In this document: positions 1 through 37,266 of the stretch, piece by piece
Layout: each line of letters starts with the position of its first letter
How positions within the stretch are numbered: the first letter of the stretch is position 1
Notes under the pieces: generated by a model
Database searches by the model: none
Told to the model about the DNA's origin: nothing
Seen by the model: only the letters and a program-made list of their open reading frames with translations
From: Elsinoe ampelina
Lineage: Eukaryota
Length of the DNA: 64,000 nt
Assembly: GCA_010093995.1 (NCBI GenBank)
Contig: ML992506.1
Location: 1,167,109-1,231,108, forward strand
Direction of reading: 5' to 3'
Position numbers and translations under genes: made by a program

Positions 1-3000
1 GATTTGGCGAGCTCCAGTTGGACGGAAGCTGCTTCGAGATATGCGGATTGTGCTTGGAAGTACTTCCAGAGAAGGTCGGCAGCATCGAGGGAGTCGTTCA
101 TCCGCCGACGGAGATAAGCAACAACAAAGGGAGACGAAAGCTCCAGCAGTCGGTCGGCCTGATCATTCGCCAAATACTGATCGAAGAGGACGGTCTGGAA
201 CACCTCATCTGTTGACTCGTTGATAACGCTGTATGCTTCTTCCCGCCGAGTCATTAGTAACTGTGACGGTCCGTCTTGAGGATGAGCATTCTCGTATGTG
301 GCGGTATCAACAGCATTGATGACATGGAAGATGAAATCGTAGACTGCTCGTCGCCTATCGAAAGCCTCTTTCCGAGCATCATCTGGAGGCGAGTTCTCCC
401 GCAACCAATTCAGAGCTCGATTAGCTCGATCCGACTCTTGTGCGACATTTAGACAAAGATGAATGGCGCCTGCATAGAATTGTGAACCAGTGTATTGTTG
501 CACGGCCCATTGTAGATGCTCCATGGACAGAGCCCCTGCCACTTTCTGGAATAGCCGAAGAGACTCGTTCAGCCAGGCTCGACCTTGCTCCGAATTCGCG
601 CCAGCCTCGGAAGCACGCTTGACCAGTTCCTGAGCTTTGAAGATGATGACATCGTCAGCGCTACAGAAGCTGCCGCATCGCCTTCGCAGAGCATCAGCAA
701 CCGTATCGACATTGGCGCCACTTGCTATGTTGCGATTGACAATAGCTTTTACGAGTTCCTTGGCCAGATCCCGAGCTTCAATAGATGAGAAGAGCTGCTC
801 AAATGTGAGTTGCTTGAGCTTGCCTCTCGATTGCTCGGGCAATGACATGACAATCTCGTCGACCCTTTCGTCGAAGAGGACAAGCACAAAAGCAATACCC
901 TCGATGATGCTGGAGACGAGTTGCACCATGGAATTCATTGCCCGGTGCTCAGCCTGCAGGGTGACCTCTTCCTGCTTGGTCGAGACTCGGCCTAGAGCTT
1001 CAGGTCCAGCGAGACCTTCGATCGACGTCCGATTCTTCTCCAGGAACTCTTGCAACGCATTCAATGACCTCTGAATGCTCTGTAGCTTCGTCAATGGGAA
1101 TGTTGGGATAACTTGCAAACCTCCAGTGGGTGATGCAGTCTCCATACAGACCGGAGCCTTCCAGATTGAGCGTACGATTCGAGACAAGTATAGCGCAATA
1201 CCCTCATGGCGCGGCGATGTCCGGACATTATCGATAGCCGGTACAGTATTGTCCAGCACAGAGTTCTCGTTGAAAGTCGGCCGACCGCCATGTTGGATGA
1301 ACATCTCTCGTGCAAAATCAATGACTTCTGGCTCCGTGATTTGTGCAATCCGTTCGTCATTGGTCACGTCCGAACCCTGCCCGCAAGCTACAGCAAGAGC
1401 AGATGCGGCGGACTCCGATCGTCCATAGAGTCGAATGAACTTCTTCATTTCACCTTCGCGGCCGTCATTGTCGCCACCGTACCGTACTGCTGCGGCCAGA
1501 ATGTCTACAAGCCTCCTCCGCCGAATAGTGTGCACTCCACTGCTGCTTAATATGGCGATCTCTGTGGCTGAAGCATCGAACTGCACGGCAAGCTCATTGG
1601 CAAATCCTAGTGGTGCTTTCGCGGCCCCAAAGGGAGGTGTCGCTCTGCCAAAGTCCTGCACTGGCATGCCGAGCTGAATGTACTGCGCGGTCTCCGGGTA
1701 TTTGGTCGGTTGTGACGGGTCCTTGGGCATTTTGATTTGTCCGGAATCTGGCGCACACAAGAAAAGTCGTTGCTGCTGCGTGTCTGGTGGATATCTCGCT
1801 ACCAGAAGGGAGAAACCAGGTGGGTACCTAGTTCCCATAGTCGTTGGCGTCAGCACGCGCGTGTTCAGATCGACTGCAGCGTTGTTCGCTTGATAGCCTC
1901 CGAGAGAGCCTTGTTGCTGCGCTTGGCCTTCTGAAGAACCAGCTGGATCCTTTGGTGGAAATTTGACATGGTGGACCTGCATGCTCGACGGCGCGCTGGA
2001 ATTGTTCGAAGGAAAATAGGAACCAGATGTAGCGCTCAGGAAAATGCGACAGCCGGACGACGTAACGAGTTGCAGACTCAAGCGAGAGCTCTCGGTTGCC
2101 GGGATCGGGCTGAGGGAAACGACTTCTGTGCTGGGTACGAGAAGATCTGTTCGCGGGATCATGTGGCCAATGTTGCTTAGTAGCGCTGTGAAAGGTCGAG
2201 TAAGTGCAAGCAAGACGCTGCCATCGTTTCTGATGTGATAGACGCGGATTGTGGACTTTGATGACAGGGTGTAGAGGAGATCACGAGTGTCGTCCACAGC
2301 CAGCTGTTTGATGTATTCGGTCTCTGTTCTGCCACCAAATATGCTCAGAGCTCCAGTAAGATCATAGCCCTGTTTGCTGTGATTAATCTTGTCGCATCGG
2401 CTTTTGAACCACCTCTCCTCTTGTGAATATGTCAGTTCCCACACGTCCTCATTCGCCCTGCCAGTGAAGAATATTCTCCCGCTCTTCTGCGAAGCCGTGA
2501 TCTGAGTACAGCTGATGCCCTTTGCTGGTACTGCCATTCGAGTAGAGTATAGATCGATGCTCTTGCCGCCGGCTGGATTCGCTGTTGTCGCAACTCCAAT
2601 GAGGGTGATCTCGCTCGTTGACGCTACCACCAGCAGATGGGTGATGGCCGCTACGAAGACTCCAGGACGTGGCTTGATCAGAGCGACTCCAGTAATCACA
2701 GAAGTGCTGTCCTCATATCCGATAAGCTCCGGGTTGGGATGGGTGTAATCCCAAAGGTAGAGCGAGCTGTCGATGGTGATGTAGGCATGGTTGATCTCGG
2801 CGAACAAGCCCAGAGCAGTCGCGACTTGAGATTGATTGGCTTGCTCGAAGATCTGCTCCGGTATGTCATAGTTCTTCACCCGCTGAAATGGGGCCCATGC
2901 AGAGTTGTCCAGCAGATCGTATTCAGCAGAGTATCCTTGCCCTACGTAGCTGTCCAACTCTGGATACCGACTCTCGCTGGCCAGTGCATCGTTTATCGTC

Positions 3001-3245
3001 CTCGCTCCTCTCGCTACTGGCGACAGATCCTGTGGTGCTTGCGCTCCCGATACTTGCTGTTGTGATTGTGAGGCAGTGTTGACCAGCGCTCCTGAGGACG
3101 GTTTCCTTTGAAGCGCGAGCGCGGATGAGGAGTTGGACCGGAAGATGGACGGCTGAGCTATGCGCTGTGATTGTGCTGGTGTCGAGATGTATCCTCCAGG
3201 AAGCTTTCTTTGAGGTGTCGCCGTCTGGGTGCTTGTCAAGGACAT
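1..3245 (-). CDS. NUP170: Nucleoporin Nup157/Nup170 (Nup155 family); 3' end lies beyond the window
   Basis: Manual minus-strand translation from ATG 3245 gives MSLTSTQTATPQRKLPGGYISTPA...ARTINDALASESRYPELDSYVGQGYSAEYD...WAPFQRVK...LGLFAEINHAYITIDSSLYLWDYTHPNPELIGYE, the characteristic fungal Nup170 N-terminal beta-propeller. The frame appears to run off the window edge, which would explain its absence from the ORF track. Confidence 0.92.
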   Translation of the reverse strand, partial: MSLTSTQTATPQRKLPGGYISTPAQSQRIAQPSIFRSNSSSALALQRKPSSGALVNTASQSQQQVSGAQAPQDLSPVARGARTINDALASESRYPELDSYVGQGYSAEYDLLDNSAWAPFQRVKNYDIPEQIFEQANQSQVATALGLFAEINHAYITIDSSLYLWDYTHPNPELIGYEDSTSVITGVALIKPRPGVFVAAITHLLVVASTSEITLIGVATTANPAGGKSIDLYSTRMAVPAKGISCTQITASQKSGRIFFTGRANEDVWELTYSQEERWFKSRCDKINHSKQGYDLTGALSIFGGRTETEYIKQLAVDDTRDLLYTLSSKSTIRVYHIRNDGSVLLALTRPFTALLSNIGHMIPRTDLLVPSTEVVSLSPIPATESSRLSLQLVTSSGCRIFLSATSGSYFPSNNSSAPSSMQVHHVKFPPKDPAGSSEGQAQQQGSLGGYQANNAAVDLNTRVLTPTTMGTRYPPGFSLLVARYPPDTQQQRLFLCAPDSGQIKMPKDPSQPTKYPETAQYIQLGMPVQDFGRATPPFGAAKAPLGFANELAVQFDASATEIAILSSSGVHTIRRRRLVDILAAAVRYGGDNDGREGEMKKFIRLYGRSESAASALAVACGQGSDVTNDERIAQITEPEVIDFAREMFIQHGGRPTFNENSVLDNTVPAIDNVRTSPRHEGIALYLSRIVRSIWKAPVCMETASPTGGLQVIPTFPLTKLQSIQRSLNALQEFLEKNRTSIEGLAGPEALGRVSTKQEEVTLQAEHRAMNSMVQLVSSIIEGIAFVLVLFDERVDEIVMSLPEQSRGKLKQLTFEQLFSSIEARDLAKELVKAIVNRNIASGANVDTVADALRRRCGSFCSADDVIIFKAQELVKRASEAGANSEQGRAWLNESLRLFQKVAGALSMEHLQWAVQQYTGSQFYAGAIHLCLNVAQESDRANRALNWLRENSPPDDARKEAFDRRRAVYDFIFHVINAVDTATYENAHPQDGPSQLLMTRREEAYSVINESTDEVFQTVLFDQYLANDQADRLLELSSPFVVAYLRRRMNDSLDAADLLWKYFQAQSAYLEAASVQLELAK

Positions 3246-3615
3246 GCTGGCGAGCTCCGCGTCGAGATGAGGTCGAAGGAAAGCGTCAGACACTGAGAGT
3301 AGCGGCTGTATAGCTTCTCATGAACTCGCATACATTGTGAAAGAGAGTTTCTGAGTGACTCCGACGGCAATTGACCCTCACTCGGCAGAATCGATCGCGA
3401 CTGTTGTGAGTTCTGAGATCTGAGAAATAATCGCAAACACACCTCGAAAGAGCTTCACGCGGAGCCGCCGCCAGCGCTCGGGCCACATCAAAAACGCGAC
3501 TCCTTGTCTACCTTACCTTTGTCTGCTACCTCATTCACTGCTCTGATCGAATTCGACATTCTTCCTTTCACCTGTTCTAGGAGACCTTATCACTTGGAGT
3601 CTGGATTTTGTAGAA

Positions 3616-27519: not shown

Positions 27520-29045
27520 ATGGCAGCGACAGAGACTCGAGTGTGGAGGAAAAGTGATCTCTGACCTCCTACAATCGACGATGCTCGTGGCTGATCTGGA
27601 CAGACGGCGACGGACCGCTCAAGTCATGCAGCCTTTCCATCGTCGACTTGCTTGGACCTTGGACTCACGGGGAATGGCTCCGAGTTGCGTACTTGAGTAT
27701 CATACCTATCGTGTTGATAGCTTCTGACGTGAAGTAGACAGTGTTCGGTCACCCACAACCCGCCGTTTGATGAGATGCGTGAGCTTGAGCGGCGACTAGC
27801 ACTATCACAGTCGTTCTGGACAAGAGGGAGTGGCCATTATCGTATCAGCGGCTACTTTGGGGCGGACAGTCCTCCATCAAACATCAAAGGCACTTTTACC
27901 TACACTTCCGAAGCCCACTTTTTGTGGAAGCGAAGCATGCTATCAAGCAGCCTCCAGTCGCCCGGCATCGAGTGGATCTCAATGGGCGTTTTCGTGCACT
28001 GGGATTCGGATGGGCACACCTCGATTTTGCTGGAGTGCGAGGAGGTAGAAGCCACCAACTACTTGATCAAGGAGCTCTCCAACCGATTGGCCAAAGATAG
28101 CTGCCAGGCAGACCCATACGCCTCCCAAGCTCTCATACTCGAGCTCATGGTAGGCTTCTATGCGACGAATGTCGACGTCTGGCTAGGGTTTGTACGCTCT
28201 TTCGAGGCTCGACGACAGTACGGACTTGACGTCAGTGGCGAGCAGACGTACTCGATCGATGATCTGCCCAGGCACCTCAATCATTGTACCGAGTGTCTAG
28301 AGGTCACTGTTGGCGTGGTAGAGAGCATGATTGAAGAGCACACAGCTCTCCTTGCCGACTGTAACGACCTCGAGCAGCTAGATCCGGTTGTCCATCGGAG
28401 GACATCTCAGTCACTGAGGAAGTGCAGATCCCTGTTCCGCTCGCTTGTATTGCAAGCGAGATCTCTCGAATCTAGGATGCGGCATGAGGCTGAGTTGGTA
28501 TGTTCCTGCGATACTGGTAACCACTTCACAAGCTGATCCGGCACCAGGATCGCACATTCATAGCTAGGCAGGACAGTCGAACAGCAGCCAACATTGCTGC
28601 TCTCGCTCGAGCGGACAGTTCGTCAACAAAGACGATCAGCGTGCTGGGGTTGATCTTCTTGCCTACGACACTGGTCTGCGTAGGTCGATTCACATTGCAA
28701 GACTATCTGCATTCTACTTGTTGCTGACTATAGGTGTAGTCCATCTTCAGCACAACCTTCTTCACCCTGCAGCCTGCGGCACAACTCGGTGATATCTCTA
28801 CTAGACCCCCCTTCGGGTCTACTACCAGAAACGGTGTCACACTTTACTGGATCGTATCTGACCAGTTCTGGCTTCTCTGGCTGGTGTCCATTCCCTTGAC
28901 TTTGCTCACCGTACTCTGCTGGGCGCTCTTCACAGGTGTCAAGCTTCCGTCAGTCAGTAGGCTCGCAAACACGGCGACACGAAGACCTGGTAGGACGATC
29001 TCTTTCAATACGTGGGAGAAGGGTACCCCCAAGAACGCCAAATGA
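27520..29045 (+). CDS. Fungal CorA-like two-TM-domain protein, paralog A (four predicted introns)
   Basis: Spliced model MAATETRVWRKN|GDGPL...GPWTHGEWLRVA|QCSVTH...LSQSFW...ADSSSTKTISVLGLIFLPTTLVC|SIFSTTFF...VSDQFWLLWLVSIPLTLLT. The C-terminal TM pair is typical of CorA-like fungal proteins. Confidence 0.78.
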
Positions 29046-29776
29046 GAACGACCGGTGGACGTAGCTCACTTGCTGGGCGGATCTAGCAGAAAATGGCAGA
29101 GTACTGGTAGCTGGAACGAATCATTGACCATTCCACAGCCAGGGAGCTGTACCTTTGACAATGTACCAGCATGGTCAGAAAGGCAATCCTTCAAGTACTT
29201 GATGCCCCTACCACAACTTCCTGCCCGACTCACTCTACACACGAGCTGGCCCGCGTGCCGGGAGGTGAGTAGTGACAGTACTCAGAATGGGAGTTCCACA
29301 TCCGGATGGTACGTGCGGGGCACGACGTAGCACATCGGGTAACCGCGTAGTGTTCAACTTGAAGATACCATGGTAGCGGTGACTTGAGATCCGATGTGGA
29401 CACAAGATGAGAGGCAACAGCATGGCCATGAGGGGATGTGATGACGAGGCTACGTACGTAAATCATGCTACTGGACATAAATTCTATAGCAGCTACATGG
29501 TCAGCCATTTATGTGACTAGCATTTATATGGTTCAAACACGCGCATAGCTGAGCAATTGTGGCAAACTCAACCGAGCTGCGGGCGTCGTCCATAGATGAC
29601 GCAGAATTGATGTCTACACTCTGCTTCTCTACTGCTTTTCTACACCACTACTCAAATAACAACCACGACTGATGTGCTCGGTCGTGTACAAGTCAGAGCA
29701 CTGATCGACCTTGAGCCAATCAAAATGATTTGCGTGTTGGCATGTCAGCTGCGGCTGCAGCCAGGACGGTCGTGCA

Positions 29777-29822
29777 TACGGTAGCTTCCGCCAAAACCGT
29801 CAAAACCATCAAAACACTCAAA
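29777..29822 (+). repeat. Left terminal inverted repeat with 9-bp NNTCAAAAC sub-repeats
   Basis: TACGGTAGCTTCCGCCAAAACCGTCAAAACCATCAAAACACTCAAA. Confidence 0.92.
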
Positions 29823-30331
29823 TCCCCAAATCATCAAAGTTTGGAGGCCTCTAACTCCCTTAATTCTGTCAATATTGATATACAATTAACAGTAAATTGA
29901 TCAGATTAATCTATTCTATCATCCTCCAACTTCAAGCATTTTTTTTGAGCTGATTTTGGTGCTGGCGTAATTAGTGCGTGTTATAGCGGCTAGGCGGCGA
30001 GGTGCTTGGCACTCCGCCAGCACTCCTACCTCCAACACCTTGATATTACCTACATCATGCGACTGCGGCGGCGAATGCACTGCGAATACTGTCAGAATAG
30101 ATCTCTATTGTCCTCTATTTAAGCTGCTAAGAGTAAGGCTTAATCCGGTGGGTGTTTATTGTTCCTTGCCGCTTTTAGGTCTTTATATTGTTACTATTGT
30201 CACTATTGTCACTATTTAAACTAGCAACAATGATGGCAGCTTTAATATATATAAGCTTACAGTCACTATGTAGTTTAATTAGAACTCTGCTATACTATTA
30301 CGACCCTGTCAAATTTAATTAAATATTTACT

Positions 30332-31047
30332 ATAGCTAACACTACTAAAGTAACCTCTACTAAGTATGTATCACAGCATGTTCGCAGCTGGTTCGCTACT
30401 GACTTCGCCTTCTAGAAGATACAATCCACAAGCGCTAGACGCTACGATTAACAACGATCCCTATGCCTCTAATACCTCTAAGGAAACAACTAGTAACTCT
30501 AAGGCTATATATGTCTTTATAGCTCCTTAGGCTAGTGTTCGCCACTGATTCGCATAGCTACCCTATTACATACTCGTACCGCCGCCCTAAGACTGAGAAT
30601 CTAGCCAGATTTTGGTTTATCTCCGAGTTAAACTAGTTTAAGCTCGTTAACACCTGCGAGACTAGCGGCAACAAGTGTAGTAAGGACTTTATAACGCTCC
30701 GTATATACGACGCCATCGGCCGCATTATAGAGACAGACGAAGGCGGCATTAGCGAACGCGCCTGCGAACAGTATATAAAGGCAAACGAGCTGTGTGCTTG
30801 CTTCCTTAATAAGCCGTCTAAGTCGTGTATATACTACTGCCGCTACTATCGCTAGAGGTGCGCCCCTTAGCTTACAAAGGAGGAGCTAGAGGATTAGAAG
30901 CCGGTGACCGCGGGCCGCATTAAGGAGCTTAAGTAGAGAGTAGAGGCGCTAGAGAATAATACGCTCGCTACTAAGGCTAAGCTATAGTAGCTAAGGGATA
31001 GAATTACGGAACTTACGAATAGGCCTATAAACTAGTAGCGAACATAA
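30332..31047 (+). pseudogene. RIP-degraded transposon cargo gene: Zn2Cys6-like cluster followed by a coiled coil; introns 30364-30415 and 30509-30557
   Basis: The start reads actATAgct (from accATGgct). Intron 1 is gtatgt...ctgac...tag. Exon 3 reads C-E-Q-[TAT from TGT]-IKANEL-C-ACFLNKPSKS-C-IY-[TAC from TGC]-CRYYR*R-C, then RIKELK*RVEALENNTLATKAKL**LRDRITEL. All stops are TAA/TAG. Confidence 0.68.
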
Positions 31048-31167
31048 TACCTATATATTCTCCTAGAGTTTATAGACTATAATTTTACCCCCTTTACATT
31101 GCCTCCTCTAGTCGATATTAAATCGTGACTGTACGTACTACGAATTGCTTAGCGAACTACTAGCGAT

Positions 31168-31377
31168 TCTACTCGCACTGTCTACCTTGCACCGTCTAAC
31201 TCGTACACCGCTATCTAACTCGTTACCGCCGTCTAGCTCGCACTACTATCTAACTTGTCACCGCTGTCTAACTCGTATACTGCCGTCTAGCTCGCACTAC
31301 GAACTAGTCTACTACCTATCTAGCTCGCACTACGAACTGTTCTACTACTATCTAACTCGCACTATCTAATTCGTGCA
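31168..31377. repeat. Degenerate ~17-19-bp tandem repeat (core TCTARCTCGYAC) inside the transposon
   Basis: About ten copies such as gtctaactcgtacacc, atctaactcgttacc, gtctagctcgcactac and atctaactcgcactat. Confidence 0.75.
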
Positions 31378-31619
31378 CCCCTAACTAACACCTTTGCCCC
31401 TAACCCTACCCCTACTGCTACCCCTACCCCTACCCTCCCTCGCATCTCCCCTCTCTACCCTACTACCCTAATAGTAAGGCGGTGGGATGTAGTGGAGGGT
31501 ACTTGTACCCTCTACTACGTAGGGGGCTCTTGCCTCCCCTTCTCTCCTCTCTCCCCTCCGTAAAGAGGTTTTTTACTAGAAGAGAATTATCAGCAAGAAG
31601 AAGTATATATATAGGGTGT

Positions 31620-33250
31620 CAAACCACGCCTTACCCTTTTAGGCAAGCCTATAACCCTAGCATAGACTTGTAAGGCCTTTTAGCCTTATAGCCGGTGTAA
31701 CTACGGAGAGTGTAGTTAGTTAAATTAACTATAGTCTTTTAACGCTTACTAGCCTTAACCGAGTAATCGCTTCGTGTTCGCTTATGTATTCGAGGTTAAT
31801 ATGATTGCTTAGGCTCGTTAACTTACTCGTGCTGTTCTTAATGCTCCTTAGAGGTTGCCTTAGTCTTAATCCTTTACTCTGATTCTATAGACGACTTAGC
31901 TTTAAAGAGAGAGCTATATAGTAAGTTCATTAGCCTACCGAGGGTCTCCTTACTTAGCACTGCACGCTGTGGCTGCCGAGGGGTGTTAAAAGGTAGTAGA
32001 GGCTCGGCGGTACTATCTAAGTTAAAGAGATCGTCCTATACAGTCGATGACTTAACACTGCCGACTATGCTAGTCGGTATACTTGCAAGAAGGCTCCTAG
32101 CACGAAGCTAGAAGCGTAGAGTCTCTAGTAGTAGAGCTGGCACAGCGGCAGCAGGTGCGGCTAGTGAAGACTCTATAAGGTCGATAGTCTCCTTGCCGTC
32201 GACGAGCTAGCTAGGCTACTTCTCCTTCCCCTTTGCCCTAGCTACTAAAACTTGCTATGTGCGCTCCTCGATTAAGGCCTTAATCTTATCGTTAACCGAC
32301 AAGAGTTCCGGCTTAACATTAACGTCGTTAGAAGTATTCAAAAACGAGAAGTCGGTGTCCTCTATAAAAAGATTTTTATCCTACGAATTAGCCTTAATAT
32401 TCGCTTCGGTGTTTGTAGCTAGGGATATCGTCGTGTTTACATCGGCGTTCGTAGCGTGACTTAGAGATCCTAACCCTCTCCACGGATACTCTATATGCTC
32501 CTACTGTTCCTTCGACTTATCGTCCTTAGCTTATTTAATCACGACGTAAAGGAGATGCTCAATAGTAGTACGCTTCGATTTCGGCTTACGCGGGAGACTA
32601 ACTAACATCTTCTAGATGCTCGGCTACTAGAAGACGTTGTCGGCAATAGGTATAGCCTTATCGTCCTCTATTAGTACGAAATAGCGCTTCGTAAAGCGTA
32701 GTATTACTATTTCTAGATCGCGGATAGTAGGATTAGGGCAGTGACTATAGACTAAATTCAACAAGAAGGACGTTCTTTAGTAGTTACTCTCTAGTAATTC
32801 GGCATTAAACTCCGACGGCGTGATCTAGTCCGTCTACTTAGTTAGCTCTAGCTAAGAGACGATCTTCTTATAAGGCATACTATGCTTAAGCTTATACTCT
32901 ATCTCGATTGTTAGGCCGTAGAGGTGAAGTCTAATCCTTTGCTCTTTATTAGCCTTTAGTCCTTTAGGAGTTTCTTCGTTAGGCGAATCGTTTAGTAAGT
33001 CCTTATACGAACGCTAAGAGACTAGTAAAGATCCTACATGTGGCAATTGTGCTACTACGCCTTTAGCCTTTTTGCCCTTCTAGTATCTAGCACGCCTTGC
33101 TATATTGGCTTTAGTCGAGAGACTACTATATGCGGTTAGCGCCGGCGCTATAGATCGCTTTATATTCGCCGCTATAATCGCGAGTTAGTCTATGTTAGCC
33201 TAAGATAGCGCGCGAGTTAGACTACTAGATAGTGCGCGAGATAGACTAGC
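31620..33250 (-). pseudogene. RIP-degraded second ORF of the transposon, unknown function (boundaries approximate)
   Basis: One continuous minus-strand frame follows a ctaac...tag intron acceptor at ~33251 and is interrupted only by TAA/TAG. Segments include ANIARRARY*KGKKAKG, RIRLHLYGLTIEIEYKL and an acidic/Ser-rich region, ending near KRPYKSMLGL. Confidence 0.6.
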
Positions 33251-33560
33251 CTATACAGGTTAGCACTAAGGCTCTTCTAGCGTTAATGCTGTGCTTGCTT
33301 GTTAATAGTTTAGATTAGTCTTATAGCAAATAGAACACTCAGCGAGGTGTCTATATTTAACTACGTAATTAGAGCCTTTATATTTGTAAAAAGGTGCCTA
33401 AGAAGGTAGCGGCATCTCGCTAGTAGTAACAAACAAACAATATAGTAGTAATAAGCAAAAACCGTAGAGAAAATAGAGTAGGAAAGCCCTAGTATATTAG
33501 AGAGGGGATTTAATATACATGAGTTAGATGTTCGTAGTGTGTTTACTCGGCGTTTGCGAT

Positions 33561-35140
33561 TTACTCGGCAACTTCTGCACGCAATTAATAGCCTTAAGGA
33601 TTATCTAGTTTTTGGCACTCCGATAGTAGAGAATAGCGCTACTATTGATCGTGCTTGATTAGTGCATTACGAAGCATGAAATAAGCTCTCTAGTGGAGTC
33701 TAACACCGTAAGCATTAGTTGCTCGACTATTACAAGGCTAGAGGCTAGCGGCGGAGAGGATTAAGGTATAGAGATTAAGGGTGTTAGAGGGTAGATATTA
33801 CTTATAATCTAGTACTTAATTAGCTACAAATATCTATTAGCACTTGCACCTTACCGAATTCGCTAGTGTACTAGTCTAAATCGTCGAATTAGTTAGGTAG
33901 TATAGCAACGGTATAGTCCTGTGCGCCGACTACCCCTAGATAATAATATAGGAGCCTCGGCACCCCTATAATTATATATAGTTGTCTCGGCTGCTTCCGG
34001 ATGCAGTGATAGTTCTATTAATACACGAATTGCTACACCTCTACGCGAAGGATAGGCGTGTATATAGCTATAAGAGCGACTTAGTAAGCAATAAGATTGC
34101 GCTTCTAGCGCTTTAACTTCTTTAGCTTAGTAAACTATCTTCGCTAGCGGTTCGTAGTGCTCTTTGCAAGCTAGGCCTACTATAATTCAATACGCTAATT
34201 CTGCTTACTCGTGCCGAATAAGAAGGCTTTATTCACCTCTAAAGAGAGACTACTTAGCTAACGCCGAGCGTCGAGATGCACTTATAAGACTATCGCAGTC
34301 TCGCCCCCTCTATCCGTGTAGATCTCGAGGGAGATCCGGCTATATAAGGCAGCAATAGTAGTATACTACTTCATAATTGATATAGCCTTCCTTGCCGAGA
34401 AGCCTATATAGGCCTAAACGATGTAGCGTGAAAATTCGTTAATTGCGGCGTAAATCTCGATGCTATACTCCTTAAGCTTGCAATAGGCGTCCATTAACTA
34501 GGTATAGTTTAGCCCTAGCACGTCTTACACGCCGTGACTAGTAGGCCGCCAGTTACTACAAATCTAGAACACTAAGGGATTAATTGCAATTACGGCGCGG
34601 TAAAGGCGCCGACTAGGTTAGAGTTAGTGAACCGACTGGCGAACGTATTACAAATATGTATTACCTCCTAACAATCCTATGCTTCTGCCTTATATAGGTG
34701 TAAAGGTAGCTAAGGCCCTAATCCTCGATATTACTAGCGTTATATTTGCTTTATAGTAGCTGCCGTATTCGCTCGTACTTAACCTTGTCCTCTTCTCGAT
34801 CAATCCGATAGATGAGGCCTAACTCTTTATATAGGCGCTTTAGCATCCCTAACGATATATCGAAGCCTTACTCTTTTAGTACCTCTAGCGTCTCTTGCTA
34901 GCTAATACGTAGCTGGAATAGCTCCTTAATGCTGCGGTAGAGAGCCTCGGAGTCGACTAGTGCCTTAGGGTGGGTGGAGAGCTGCCAGCCTTGCAAGAGG
35001 CGCTAGAGCGTTCTAAGCGACAGGGTGTAACTACGCCTTAATAGCCTCTAGAGTACTTTAGGCTAATCACAGCGCTCGTGCAGCAACTAGTACTCGATAA
35101 GAGGCCTATCTACCTCGATTGTAGCGGATTGTGAAGCCAT
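33561..35140 (-). pseudogene. RIP-inactivated DDE transposase (integrase core plus N-terminal HTH/Clr5-like region), ~493 aa; introns 34613-34664 and 33809-33854
   Basis: ATG at 35140. De-RIP translation gives LSLRTLQRLLQGW, VPGPNYTWSMDAYCKL..YGIEIYAAIDEFSRYIVWAY.G, TDRGGET, FGTSKQNQRIESWWAQL and WN.H.IRKQP....GVP.LLYYYP. No frameshift was found. Confidence 0.9.
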
Positions 35141-35385
35141 ATCGAGTGGTGTGGTATGTTAGGGGGTAATAGGAAGGAAGGTACAGAAAACCAGCACACC
35201 TGGCTTTTATACCGGCGCCAAGCCACAAAAAACTAAAGGTATACAATAAGAGAATAATACTTACATTAAACGATAGAGCGTCATAAGAGCTGTCGATTGC
35301 AATAAGAATCATTGCAATAAGTGGTATAGGTGGTGCGCGGGGAGGTGGTGTAATAGCAAATGCTGGGTTTAAGCGTTTTGATGGT

Positions 35386-35431
35386 TTTGAGCGTTTTGAC
35401 TGTTTTGACTGTTTTGGCGGAAGCTACCGTA
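35386..35431 (-). repeat. Right terminal inverted repeat; 9-bp sub-repeats continue inward to ~35367
   Basis: Reverse complement reads TACGGTAGCTTCCGCCAAAACAGTCAAAACAGTCAAAACGCTCAAA(ACCATCAAAACGCTTAAAC). Confidence 0.92.
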
Positions 35432-35616
35432 TGCATGACGGTGGCCAGCTGAGACGGCGCCTCGACCTCGCTCGACTCGTGTGGTGAAGGACTGCTTTCA
35501 CCGTTGATACGTGAGCCACAGATAGGATCTCAGTTGCAAAGGCGCCAGAACGAAGTGTTTGATATCAGGACTGACCGCACTTGGACTTCGCCGAGTCTCA
35601 GTGAGACAGCAAGGTC

Positions 35617-37266
35617 ATGTCAGCACACACAAACCCGACATTTCCTCCAGGACCACGGTCATCACAACATCAATTAACTTTCTATGTATACAGCAGAGGT
35701 ACATATGCCCCATAGATCTGATTGCAATGCTGCTGATCACTATATAGGCTCTCACAATCGTGGCACAGGTCACACCTTGCGGCTTGAGGACTCGTGGGCC
35801 CCGTGGCAGCCAGGTGAGACATTCAGGTTGATGTAAGCTACACGGACTACTTGTGACATCCTTGGAAACTGATTCCCCAACGGTACATGCATGCGCACCC
35901 CAAATGATCGCGATCGACATCAACTCGACCTCAAGCTCGGCCTGAATCAATCGTTCTGGACATTCCTCTACAAGCACGCCAATGGCTTTTTCCGAGCTCG
36001 TGAGCACCACACCGAGTCTGGTGATCTTGAGAGCTACAGAATTACCACCCGTTCACTCTTTAAGCGTTTCCCCTCTCTCGAGAATGCGGATTATCGAGTG
36101 AATGACCCTACCCCTGCTGCGACCTGGACCTCTTTCGCGTCCTACACCAAATGGGAGCCTGCTGGGAGGGTTACCGTGCTGGTGAACGTCGAAAGGGCAC
36201 AGTTCCTGGAGCTACTAGGTATTCCTCGCCTCCTGGACGAGTCTTTCGCGCGGCGCTGCACCGCTGATCCCTTCGCTTTCCACGCCGCCATGATCGAGCA
36301 GATGCTTCATATCTGCAACTTGGCGATATGGTCCGTGAGAAAATCTATGCGATTGTTCCAGGACGAGGTCTTGACTGAGTCTACCGACAAACCCACCAAG
36401 AGCGAAGGGCCCGTCTCAGATATCCGTCTCCTCGAAGTCCCGGAGCATTTCGTCCACTGCAGCGAGCTGGCCGCCTCAGCTGGCGAGATTGTCGAGGCCA
36501 TGGTCGAGGAGCACGCCACGTTCGTCGAGGATAACACCAATATTCCTGCACTTTCGAAGAGGGTGGCCAGGAATGTAAGCAAAGACCTCAAAGCTCACAG
36601 AGCACTGTTCAAGTGTCTGGGCTATCGAGCGGCCAGTCACCAATCTGTACTGAGTCACAATATCAGCATGGTAGGGGTTCTGACTTCAAATGCAAGCATG
36701 ATACTCACACTATCACAGGCTATCGTCAAGATGCAACAACGAGACAGCCAGGTCCAACGGAAAGACAGCGAAACAGCCACGAAGATCGCCAAACTCGCAC
36801 AGGCTGACAGCTCTTCCACAAAGACTATCAGTGTGCTCGGTCTGCTGTTTCTACCAAGCACCTTCGTCTGCGTACGTGTTCCTCTCATGCTCACCCTTTC
36901 ACTTGACCCCTTATTCCCTTTCAGACGTTTACTAGGGGAACCTGCTGACACAACCAGTCCCTCTTCAGCACAACCTTCTTCTCCCTGCAACCCGCCGCAG
37001 ATCTTCAGGACCAGCCAGGCACTGCTCCGTCCAGGACAGGCGCCGATCGTCTACCGACGTACTGGCTTTTGTCGGATCGATTCTGGATATTCTGGGCTGT
37101 GTCGATACCTTTGACTTTGTTTACGCTGTGCTTTTGGTTTGTGTATACGAGAGGACATGTCAAGAAGTTTGCCAGGTGGGTCTTTGGCATACGAGAGGTG
37201 AAAGGTGGGAGGGAAGAGGGTGAGGCGGGCAAGGAGGCAGAGAAGGGGGACGGGGCGGTTGCATAG
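35617..37266 (+). CDS. Fungal CorA-like two-TM-domain protein, paralog B (intron-2 acceptor reads CGG; may be truncated or pseudogenised)
   Basis: Same exon structure as paralog A: WAPWQPGETFRL, LNQSFW, ADPFAFHAAMIE, ADSSSTKTISVLGLLFLPSTFVC|SLFSTTFF...LSDRFWIFWAVSIPLTLFT. Confidence 0.72.

Follow-up and report, generated by a model that had tools for sequence, protein, structure and literature searches.

Little is understood of the accessory genes that fungal integrase-type (IS3EU-like) transposons carry. Here, we analyse a candidate for such a gene, a degraded reading frame at 30532-31047 inside a 5.7-kb transposon of Elsinoe ampelina. It lies in a 64-kb stretch of contig ML992506.1; this whole stretch is referred to as the window, and all coordinates count from its first letter. 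The closest described system is REP9/Styx from Zymoseptoria tritici. In the accessible parts of the reports, it is a class II element of 7.9 kb with terminal inverted repeats (TIRs) of 43 bp and target-site duplications (TSDs) of 6 bp, and it has four genes, two of them with DUF3716 and one encoding an integrase-core transposase nearest to IS3EU (PMC8232023; PMC10853768). The same excerpts state that expression of REP9-1 lowers the number of pycnidia, and that the element is reported in Zymoseptoria only, where it is multicopy and affected by repeat-induced point mutation (RIP) in sister species (PMC8232023; PMC10853768). The DUF3716 genes of REP9/Styx have a measured effect on pathogen reproduction and no known fold or activity.

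For IS3EU elements, the sections of the papers that are available describe termini of the type TA..TA (in fungi, TAYGG..CCRTA) and TSDs that are usually 6 bp long (PMC10045372; PMC12730594; the TSD also in PMC8232023), and the IS3EU and GingerRoot elements described there encode two proteins. Fungal DNA transposons, IS3EU included, repeatedly acquire passenger genes such as TET/JBP, according to an excerpt of PMC12730594. A DUF3716 protein is, again in extracts of the articles, reported as orthologous to NCU05718 of N. crassa (PMC10776026), a protein that directly binds double-stranded TTAGGG repeats and whose DNA-binding domain is called unidentified in the 2015 paper (PMC4650311).

We suggest that the locus as a whole is best explained as a RIP-killed accessory gene of a multicopy integrase-type transposon, whose intact protein would be a dimeric, zinc-containing DNA binder. 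We assign a probability of roughly 60% to this reading.

A pseudogene from a conserved fungal family

The plus-strand frame at 30763-30861 reads CEQYIKANELCACFLNKPSKSCIYYCRYYR*RC, i.e., C-x2-[Y]-x6-C-x10-C-x2-[Y]-x7-C, and one of the in-frame stops, the TAG at 30853, lies within it. The consensus spacing of the Zn2Cys6 cluster is C-x2-C-x6-C-x5-12-C-x2-C-x6-8-C, and the window fits it if both tyrosines are counted as cysteines. The strict six-cysteine pattern does not occur in any frame of the window. If cysteine or tyrosine is allowed at ligands 2 and 5, this relaxed pattern is found a single time in the window, over all six frames, and in none of 300 first-order Markov simulations of the element. 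The initial annotation had pointed out this spacing, and it is not a product of chance.

Homologues were searched for with phmmer, using frame 30532-31047 as the query against 1.84 billion representatives. Of the 36 matches at E<=1e-3, five reach E<=1e-10 and the best has an E-value of 4.2e-17; the alignment spans about 150 residues. P0017 and P0022 match by the coiled coil only, while the other 34 share a common series of motifs: RRPxT..FWY(I)S..W, then the LRKFDAAGRIMETDEG block, six cysteines and a coiled coil. A typical cysteine cluster in these homologues reads PCxWCxR...CxVF...CAYCKRxxKxGC. In the alignment A1, ligand columns C1-C5 are cysteine in all 30 homologues and C6 in 29 of the 30; the two tyrosines of the window fall on the columns of ligands 2 and 5, where cysteine is present in 30/30. 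The column of the TAG at 30634 holds a tryptophan in 24 of the 25 homologues that have a residue there. By these alignments, the frame belongs to a conserved fungal protein family that is absent from Pfam.

A chance Cys/Tyr-rich run in RIP-degraded non-coding DNA could in principle mimic the spacing of a zinc cluster. The frame carries ten stops in its 172 codons (nine internal TAGs and the terminal TAA) and, with X written at the stops, has neither a Pfam match (Zn_clus gives none at E<=10) nor a word-index match. However, the phmmer matches, the long alignment and the invariant cysteine columns refute a chance origin, as does the single occurrence of the pattern in the window set against none in the simulations; its probability is close to nil.

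Homology starts at about 30532-30580 and ends at about 31032, with the N-terminal motif beginning at 30577, and in-frame ATGs at 30463 and 30511, 5' of the homologous part, are candidate starts. Because the homology runs on in one continuous frame and the relatives in the metagenome loci L001-L003 are single open frames, the gene needs no splicing. This departs from the initial annotation, which had described a spliced gene with the cluster in its last exon; homology gives no support to exons at 30332-30530. Nine internal TAGs and the loss of two ligands mark the window's copy as a pseudogene, from which no protein can be made. In the runs that are guessed to be RNA, the gene region is without cover, which says nothing on expression. 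A tblastn search of the window with 40 family proteins finds one element and one family member only.

Some members of the family have a different build. P0001, P0003 and P0006 contain tandem modules, each consisting of the N-terminal domain and the six cysteines (3, 2 and 2 phmmer stretches, respectively), followed by a single C-terminal coil. P0013 comes from Myriangium duriaei, and one source names this protein 'Zn(2)-C6 fungal-ty...'.

Direction of the changes

The base composition of the region is strongly RIP-like. The GC content is 0.41-0.44 at 30001-35000 compared with about 0.50-0.60 around it. For 30001-34000, TA/AT is 2.14 and 1.85, against about 0.4-0.8 in the flanks, and (CA+TG)/(AC+GT) is 0.57 and 0.53, against about 1.1-1.45.

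The direction of change was examined at 42 columns, each conserved in at least 70% of the homologues. The window matches the consensus at 24 of them and differs at 18. Seven of the 18 differences are explained by C>T or G>A alone, including both Cys>Tyr changes and the Trp>stop; the reverse direction alone explains none, and 11 fit neither direction. Since both Cys>Tyr changes go in the RIP direction at columns of invariant cysteine, the initial guess that the TAT and TAC codons are RIP products of cysteine codons is right, i.e., two cysteine ligands were lost through RIP.

The gene is carried by a multicopy transposon

The inverted repeats at 29766-29825 and 35383-35442 are 60 nt long and 88% complementary. 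In X4, a run from the same organism but from another sample and study, one contig joins 29759 to 35444 and lacks the insertion; its five letters at the junction fit either side. In addition, two contigs from the DNA run X1 continue unlike the window before 29765. From the TIRs, the GCCAG on both sides and the empty-site contig, it follows that the element extends over 29765-35443 (5679 bp) with the 5-bp TSD GCCAG, the length of the TSD being known from this single insertion.

In X1, 897 contig pieces fall on the stretch with 80-100% likeness, 240 of them at >=99% and 175 under 90%. Over the element, gene region included, the word depth sums to 1405-3556, against 180-218 in the flanks; these sums are not copy numbers. 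Transitions make up nearly all of the differences (C>T 295, G>A 297, A>G 77, T>C 81, others at most 7 each). As the depth is raised and the differences are mostly transitions, it is clear that the element, together with the gene, is present as many RIP-diverged copies. The earlier claim that the gene is borne by a transposon is confirmed by these data.

The transposase is recognized by hmmscan through the integrase core domain rva_4 (E 1.7e-9, 38.2 bits, cutoff 26). The match covers residues 301-475 of the minus-strand read-through frame 31500-35400. No relatives of the transposase were found by a word-index search of the region or by phmmer against the PDB with the fragment.

The element interrupts a transcribed stretch of a host gene (29669-29759 and 35444-36500). 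The empty-site contig of X4 has two short spliced gaps in this stretch, at 35697-35745 (GT..AG) and 35833-35883, which are also seen in X3 and X7, and an intron-like gap at 28680-28739 (GT..AG) is seen in X3 and X7. X3 is a run guessed to be RNA, although the RNA or DNA nature of its contigs is uncertain. One of them, 3871 nt long, consists of unrelated sequence and then the first 52 nt of the left TIR (29765-29816), which suggests another insertion site. Another X3 contig, 403 nt long, lies over 34865-35266 with 10 differences and is the 5' transposase part of another copy.

Predicted fold and dimer

The homologue P0002 was modelled by AlphaFold2 from the family alignment, with a predicted local distance difference test (pLDDT) of 93 and a predicted template-modelling score of 0.69. 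The model consists of an ordered N-terminal segment, helices at 27-39 and 41-62, the cysteine domain and a long helix at 118-171, and the N-terminal domain reaches a pLDDT of 96-97. The whole model has no Foldseek match at E<=1e-3, and a wide PDB fold search finds coiled coils only (Z<=6.3). Coiled coils are also all that is found by a PDB profile search with alignment A1.

A P0002 homodimer, modelled with zinc included, scores 0.39, compared with 0.00 for the best of three controls. The interface is parallel and in register over 118-164, the runs agree in at least 100% of the contacts and the pLDDT of the partner is at least 71. The mark used for this score is reached by 21 of 30 solved one-chain pairs and by 0 of 23 solved single chains. 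In a eukaryote benchmark it is reached by 17 of 29 pairs and 0 of 30 single chains, and by 1 of the 7 without an older solved relative. P0002 passes this mark, so that a dimerising coiled coil is predicted C-terminal to the cluster. Since many solved structures contain coiled coils, likeness to these may account for the pass, and the model supports binding without showing it. Together, the long helix, the profile matches and the dimer model bear out the coiled coil that had been proposed from the window alone.

For the cysteine domain, an AlphaFold2 model of the short natural homologue P0030 (pLDDT 81) has two helices, 27-32 and 48-53, and each starts at a CxxC. When this model is compared with the PDB by Foldseek, ranks 1-17 and 20 are all DNA-binding domains of the Zn2Cys6 type, among them Pho7, Hap1, Put3, Leu3, Ppr1, AlcR and Gal4, with weak E-values of 0.79-7.6; ranks 18, 19, 21 and 22 are unrelated. 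We take these entries to be Zn2Cys6 domains from established knowledge, as this is stated in the title of the Ppr1 entry only.

At the sequence level, more members match DUF3716 (PF12511) on the cysteine domain than any other Pfam family, namely 8 of 31 at E<=10. The best match aligns residues 66-107 of P0002 to profile positions 8-56 of 59 (E 0.019), and P0003 and P0039 score 13.7 and 13.8 bits. Zn_clus (PF00172) is matched at E<=10 by 3 of 31 members, with a best E-value of 0.4. The spacing between Cys 2 and Cys 3 has the canonical length of 6 in 17 of 42 family modules, as in the window. The ESM Atlas provides leads only: rows 1 and 4 of the structure search are DUF3716 clusters over residues 2-115 (template-modelling scores 0.33/0.40 and 0.31/0.27), and the first feature match of P0024 is a 'Zn(2)-C6 fungal-type domain-containing protein' at 0.80, a value that a third of shuffled proteins reach. 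As Zn_clus and DUF3716 both stay below their cutoffs and the spacing is mixed, the domain is filed under neither family. The cluster is described here as Zn2Cys6-like and DUF3716-related, the Zn2Cys6 fold being weakly supported.

Proposed function and alternatives

We propose that the transposon, with an integrase-type (rva_4, IS3EU-like) DDE transposase, carried an accessory gene for a protein made of an N-terminal helical domain, a six-cysteine zinc cluster and a parallel coiled coil. The cluster would have the binuclear topology of Zn2Cys6, often with its spacing, and would be related to DUF3716. The intact protein would hold two zinc ions in each chain, form dimers by way of the coil and attach to DNA. 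It could then have acted for the transposon as an accessory or regulatory factor that binds DNA, perhaps at the terminal repeats; a role at the element ends is speculation. DNA binding is favoured because the order of cluster, linker and coil is as in Gal4-type factors, because two homologues carry AT-hook-like GRP motifs, although below threshold, and because a DUF3716 protein is reported, in the parts of the papers available, as orthologous to the double-stranded DNA binder NCU05718 (PMC10776026; PMC4650311).

The two homologues with AT-hook-like motifs, P0012 (locus L002, 5163-6344) and P0028, are host-gene members of the family and contain KRGRPRK and KRGRPPK, respectively, between the cluster and the coil. 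GRP is the core of the AT-hook motif. The Pfam AT_hook matches are sub-threshold, with E-values of 0.22 and 0.092.

A number of results weigh against the preferred reading. Relatives were found in four metagenome loci (L001-L004), of which L001 is too short to judge and L004 comes without flank; the flanks examined comprise 16 kb of the 25-kb contig of L002 and 13.5 kb of L003. In L002 and L003, the homologues sit among ordinary genes with no transposase nearby. The neighbours are Arb2, HET, fructosamine kinase, DNA polymerase B, lactonase, DEAD-box helicase, DUF3433 and alcohol dehydrogenase, and none of the 26 neighbouring open reading frames (ORFs) in L001-L003 matches an integrase or transposase family. 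With these host genes, the family is not specific to transposons but occurs both on transposons and as host genes. DNA and zinc binding are predictions for every member of the family. The CGG-N6-CCG pattern, found in both TIRs (29779-29790 and 35418-35429), is not enriched, as the window contains 20 against 16.5 expected. Among the differences listed between copies (40 of 777), none falls at 30773 or 30836, the positions changed in the two tyrosine codons.

The assignment to the Zn2Cys6 fold meets similar difficulties. None of the 36 homologues matches Zn_clus at E<=0.01, and the HMMER check that the initial annotation had called for, run on the natural homologues, stays below the curated threshold (11.3 bits at best against 21). 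DUF3716 likewise falls short of its cutoff of 22 bits, the best match having 15.3. An interval of 7-9 residues separates Cys 2 from Cys 3 in 25 of 42 modules. The Foldseek search of the PDB with P0030 yields nothing at E<=1e-3, the best E-value being 0.79. Alignments by VIA-align are weak (Z 2.0-2.2, root-mean-square deviation 7.6-12.4, 49-61 residues): Hap1 1qp9_A gives Z 2.2, deviation 10.9 and 61 aligned residues; Leu3 2er8_A gives 2.1, 12.4 and 55; and Hap1 1hwt_C gives 2.0, 12.1 and 57. In the wide VIA-align search, an unrelated GRIP domain ties at Z 2.1. Of the proposed Zn2Cys6 fold, the helices at the CxxC motifs and the first 17 Foldseek ranks therefore stand in its favour, and the E-values of at least 0.79, Z-scores of at most 2.2, the unreached Zn_clus profile and the longer spacing in 25/42 modules stand against it.

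These weaknesses could mean that the six-cysteine module is a structural or protein-binding zinc domain and that the protein binds the transposase or chromatin proteins rather than DNA. Apart from the unreached Zn_clus, the spacing of 6-9 between Cys 2 and Cys 3 and the weak structural matches, this is supported by the linker after the cluster, which is acidic in many family members, and by the conserved N-terminal domain, a part for which Gal4-type factors have no equivalent and which reaches its pLDDT of 96-97 alongside the cluster. However, the domains at Foldseek ranks 1-17 bind DNA and also have a coil after the cluster. The sub-threshold GRP motifs of P0012 and P0028 point in the same direction, as does the link of a DUF3716 protein to a binder of double-stranded TTAGGG, in so far as the extracts of the papers state it (PMC10776026; PMC4650311). 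We consider a structural or protein-binding module unlikely. A passenger gene, captured from the host and without a role in transposition, is a more substantial possibility, if still a tentative one; if intact, it would have acted on host processes or not at all. The ordinary genes in L002 and L003, without a transposase among the 26 neighbouring ORFs, are what would be expected. The uptake of TET/JBP-like genes by fungal DNA transposons, IS3EU included, is a described precedent (PMC12730594), REP9-1 affects pycnidia formation in the host and the Styx model proposes the co-option of added coding sequences (PMC8232023; PMC10853768), all according to the accessible portions of these articles. 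On the other hand, the depth of the gene region in X1 is raised like that of the rest of the element, so the gene spread with the element, and REP9, an unrelated-looking integrase-type element, also has DUF3716-type genes in the excerpts available, which hints at a recurrent link.

Thus, an accessory DNA-binding protein of the transposon is the reading we prefer, with some changes from what had been proposed for this gene. It was described as the element's own regulator, and two findings speak against this: homologues in L002 and L003 are found among ordinary genes, and the copy in the window is a pseudogene. What had been named as a refutation, that homologues would be ordinary single-copy host genes unlinked to transposases, is true in part: some homologues, those in L002 and L003, are ordinary host genes.

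A bolder form of the preferred reading can be imagined. In one lineage of fungal integrase-type transposons, with a transposase that has no HHCC zinc domain, the family proteins could act as the subunit that binds DNA in a sequence-specific way. Dimers would recognise paired sites in the TIRs (CGG-N6-CCG, 9-bp repeats) and recruit the transposase, and the host paralogues, including DUF3716-type DNA binders, would be domesticated descendants and not the source. We regard this as quite improbable.

The locus gives the accessory gene a concrete reading, as a protein that is predicted to be a dimeric Zn2Cys6-like zinc-cluster protein. The window's own copy is dead and without function. A conserved fungal family that is absent from Pfam and appears both on transposons and as ordinary genes also raises the question of capture versus domestication.

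Organization of the element and its surroundings

The features of the element are listed in Table 1.

Table 1. Features of the transposon and its accessory gene, with positions in the window.
Feature	Position	Strand	Basis
Left TSD GCCAG	29760..29764	.	sequence; X4 contig
Left TIR, first base 29765	29765..29825	+	inverted repeat; X1 contigs diverge before 29765
Subterminal 8-9-bp repeats (CCGTCAAAA type), in + beside the left TIR	29788..29838	+	Tandem Repeats Finder
RIP-inactivated accessory gene	30532..31047	+	one frame; phmmer family matches; internal stops
Conserved N-terminal domain (YRRPKTEN...FWFIS...LRIYDAIGRIIETDEG)	30577..30744	+	aligns with family consensus RRPxT..FWY...LRKFDAAGRIMETDEG
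TAG on conserved Trp column	30634..30636	+	G>A turns TGG into TAG
Six-ligand Cys cluster, ligands 2 and 5 now Tyr	30763..30861	+	homologue columns; pattern once in window
Tyr TAT at Cys ligand 2	30772..30774	+	reachable from TGT by G>A only
Tyr TAC at Cys ligand 5	30835..30837	+	reachable from TGC by G>A only
Coiled-coil region (KPVTAGRIKELK.RVEALENN...LRDRITELTNRPIN)	30898..31032	+	homologue coil alignment; P0002 helix 118-171
Internal tandem repeats, 3' of the gene	31195..31435	+	54-bp x2, 33-bp x2.4, CCCCTA x6.5
Transposase catalytic-core remnant (PF24764 rva_4)	33976..34500	-	hmmscan
Right TIR, last base 35443	35383..35443	-	inverted repeat
Right TSD GCCAG	35444..35448	.	sequence; X4 contig

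The left subterminal repeats consist of a period-9 array with 3.1 copies at 29788-29815 and a period-8 array at 29803-29838; on the right, 9-bp repeats are found at 35364-35416. The repeat arrays at 31195-31435 have inverted partners (CGCGAGTTAGTCTA type) about 1.9 kb away, at 33179-33248. These internal arrays flank the middle third of the element, and the CCCCTA run loosely resembles a degenerate telomere repeat.

On the minus strand, a frame starting MASQSATIEVD... at 34600-35140 looks fairly intact and lies upstream of the integrase core, in another frame than the core. It is probably the N-terminus of the transposase, separated from the core by an intron or indel. A resemblance of this N-terminus to Clr5 was considered and dropped, having no support from Pfam. 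From the right end to about 31800, one minus-strand frame has 3-7 stops per 100 codons, compared with 8-18 in most other frames, and its antisense is nearly open at 31865-32600. A third gene, or else a C-terminal piece of the transposase, may lie on the minus strand at about 31700-33100, a region with no Pfam match. The other two minus-strand frames gave no match in Pfam either.

Outside the element, the window contains otherwise ordinary genes (aconitase, PHP phosphatase, HECT ligase, GH16 and GH5), so the element sits in gene-rich DNA. An ORF at 15127-15921 matches Fungal_trans_2 (E 1.2e-7). Despite this ORF, no uninterrupted frame of the window contains a canonical Zn2Cys6 pattern; an intron may split the zinc cluster of this ORF, or the cluster may be missing.

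Comparison with known systems

The Zn2Cys6 factors Gal4, Ppr1, Put3, Hap1, Leu3, Pho7 and AlcR are the top fold matches of the family, none of them significant. According to the models, the two would share six cysteines in two CxxC-x(n)-C halves, short helices, a linker and a parallel coil. However, the family has an extra conserved N-terminal domain, its proteins are about 170-350 residues long and they lack the regulatory middle-homology region. DUF3716 is the nearest Pfam family on the cysteine domain, from which the family differs in that its matches are below the curated cutoff. In the available part of the study of NCU05718, DNA binding is not assigned to the DUF3716 domain itself (PMC4650311). 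Our literature search found no paper that joins a binuclear cluster with a transposon-encoded protein in fungi.

Like the IS3EU and GingerRoot elements, as far as the accessible descriptions go, the present element is bounded by TIRs and has an integrase-like DDD/E transposase without an HHCC domain, and the fungal ones among them carry passenger genes. The integrase-like transposase (rva_4) and the TIRs agree with IS3EU. The TSD and the termini differ: GCCAG, at the single insertion, has 5 bp instead of the usual 6, and the element begins with GACGG... and ends with ...ACGGTG; TACGG and CCGTA are found 12 nt inside each end. With these deviations, and with its transposase placed by the Pfam rva_4 match, the element is best called IS3EU-like.

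The likeness to REP9/Styx, as this system appears in the excerpts, includes TIRs, a target duplication, multiple copies, RIP, an RVE-type DDD/E integrase-core transposase and accessory genes with DUF3716-type cysteines. The present element differs from it by its length of 5.7 kb, its 60-nt TIRs, its 5-bp TSD and a single recognisable accessory gene that is below the DUF3716 threshold; the comparison with REP9 (REP9-1 and REP9-2) is one of descriptions and not of sequences. A second, differently built transposon is now linked to a DUF3716-type accessory gene, and since both elements have such genes, a recurrent link is hinted at. The present element is a further variant beside REP9/Styx of the wheat pathogen and not a new system.

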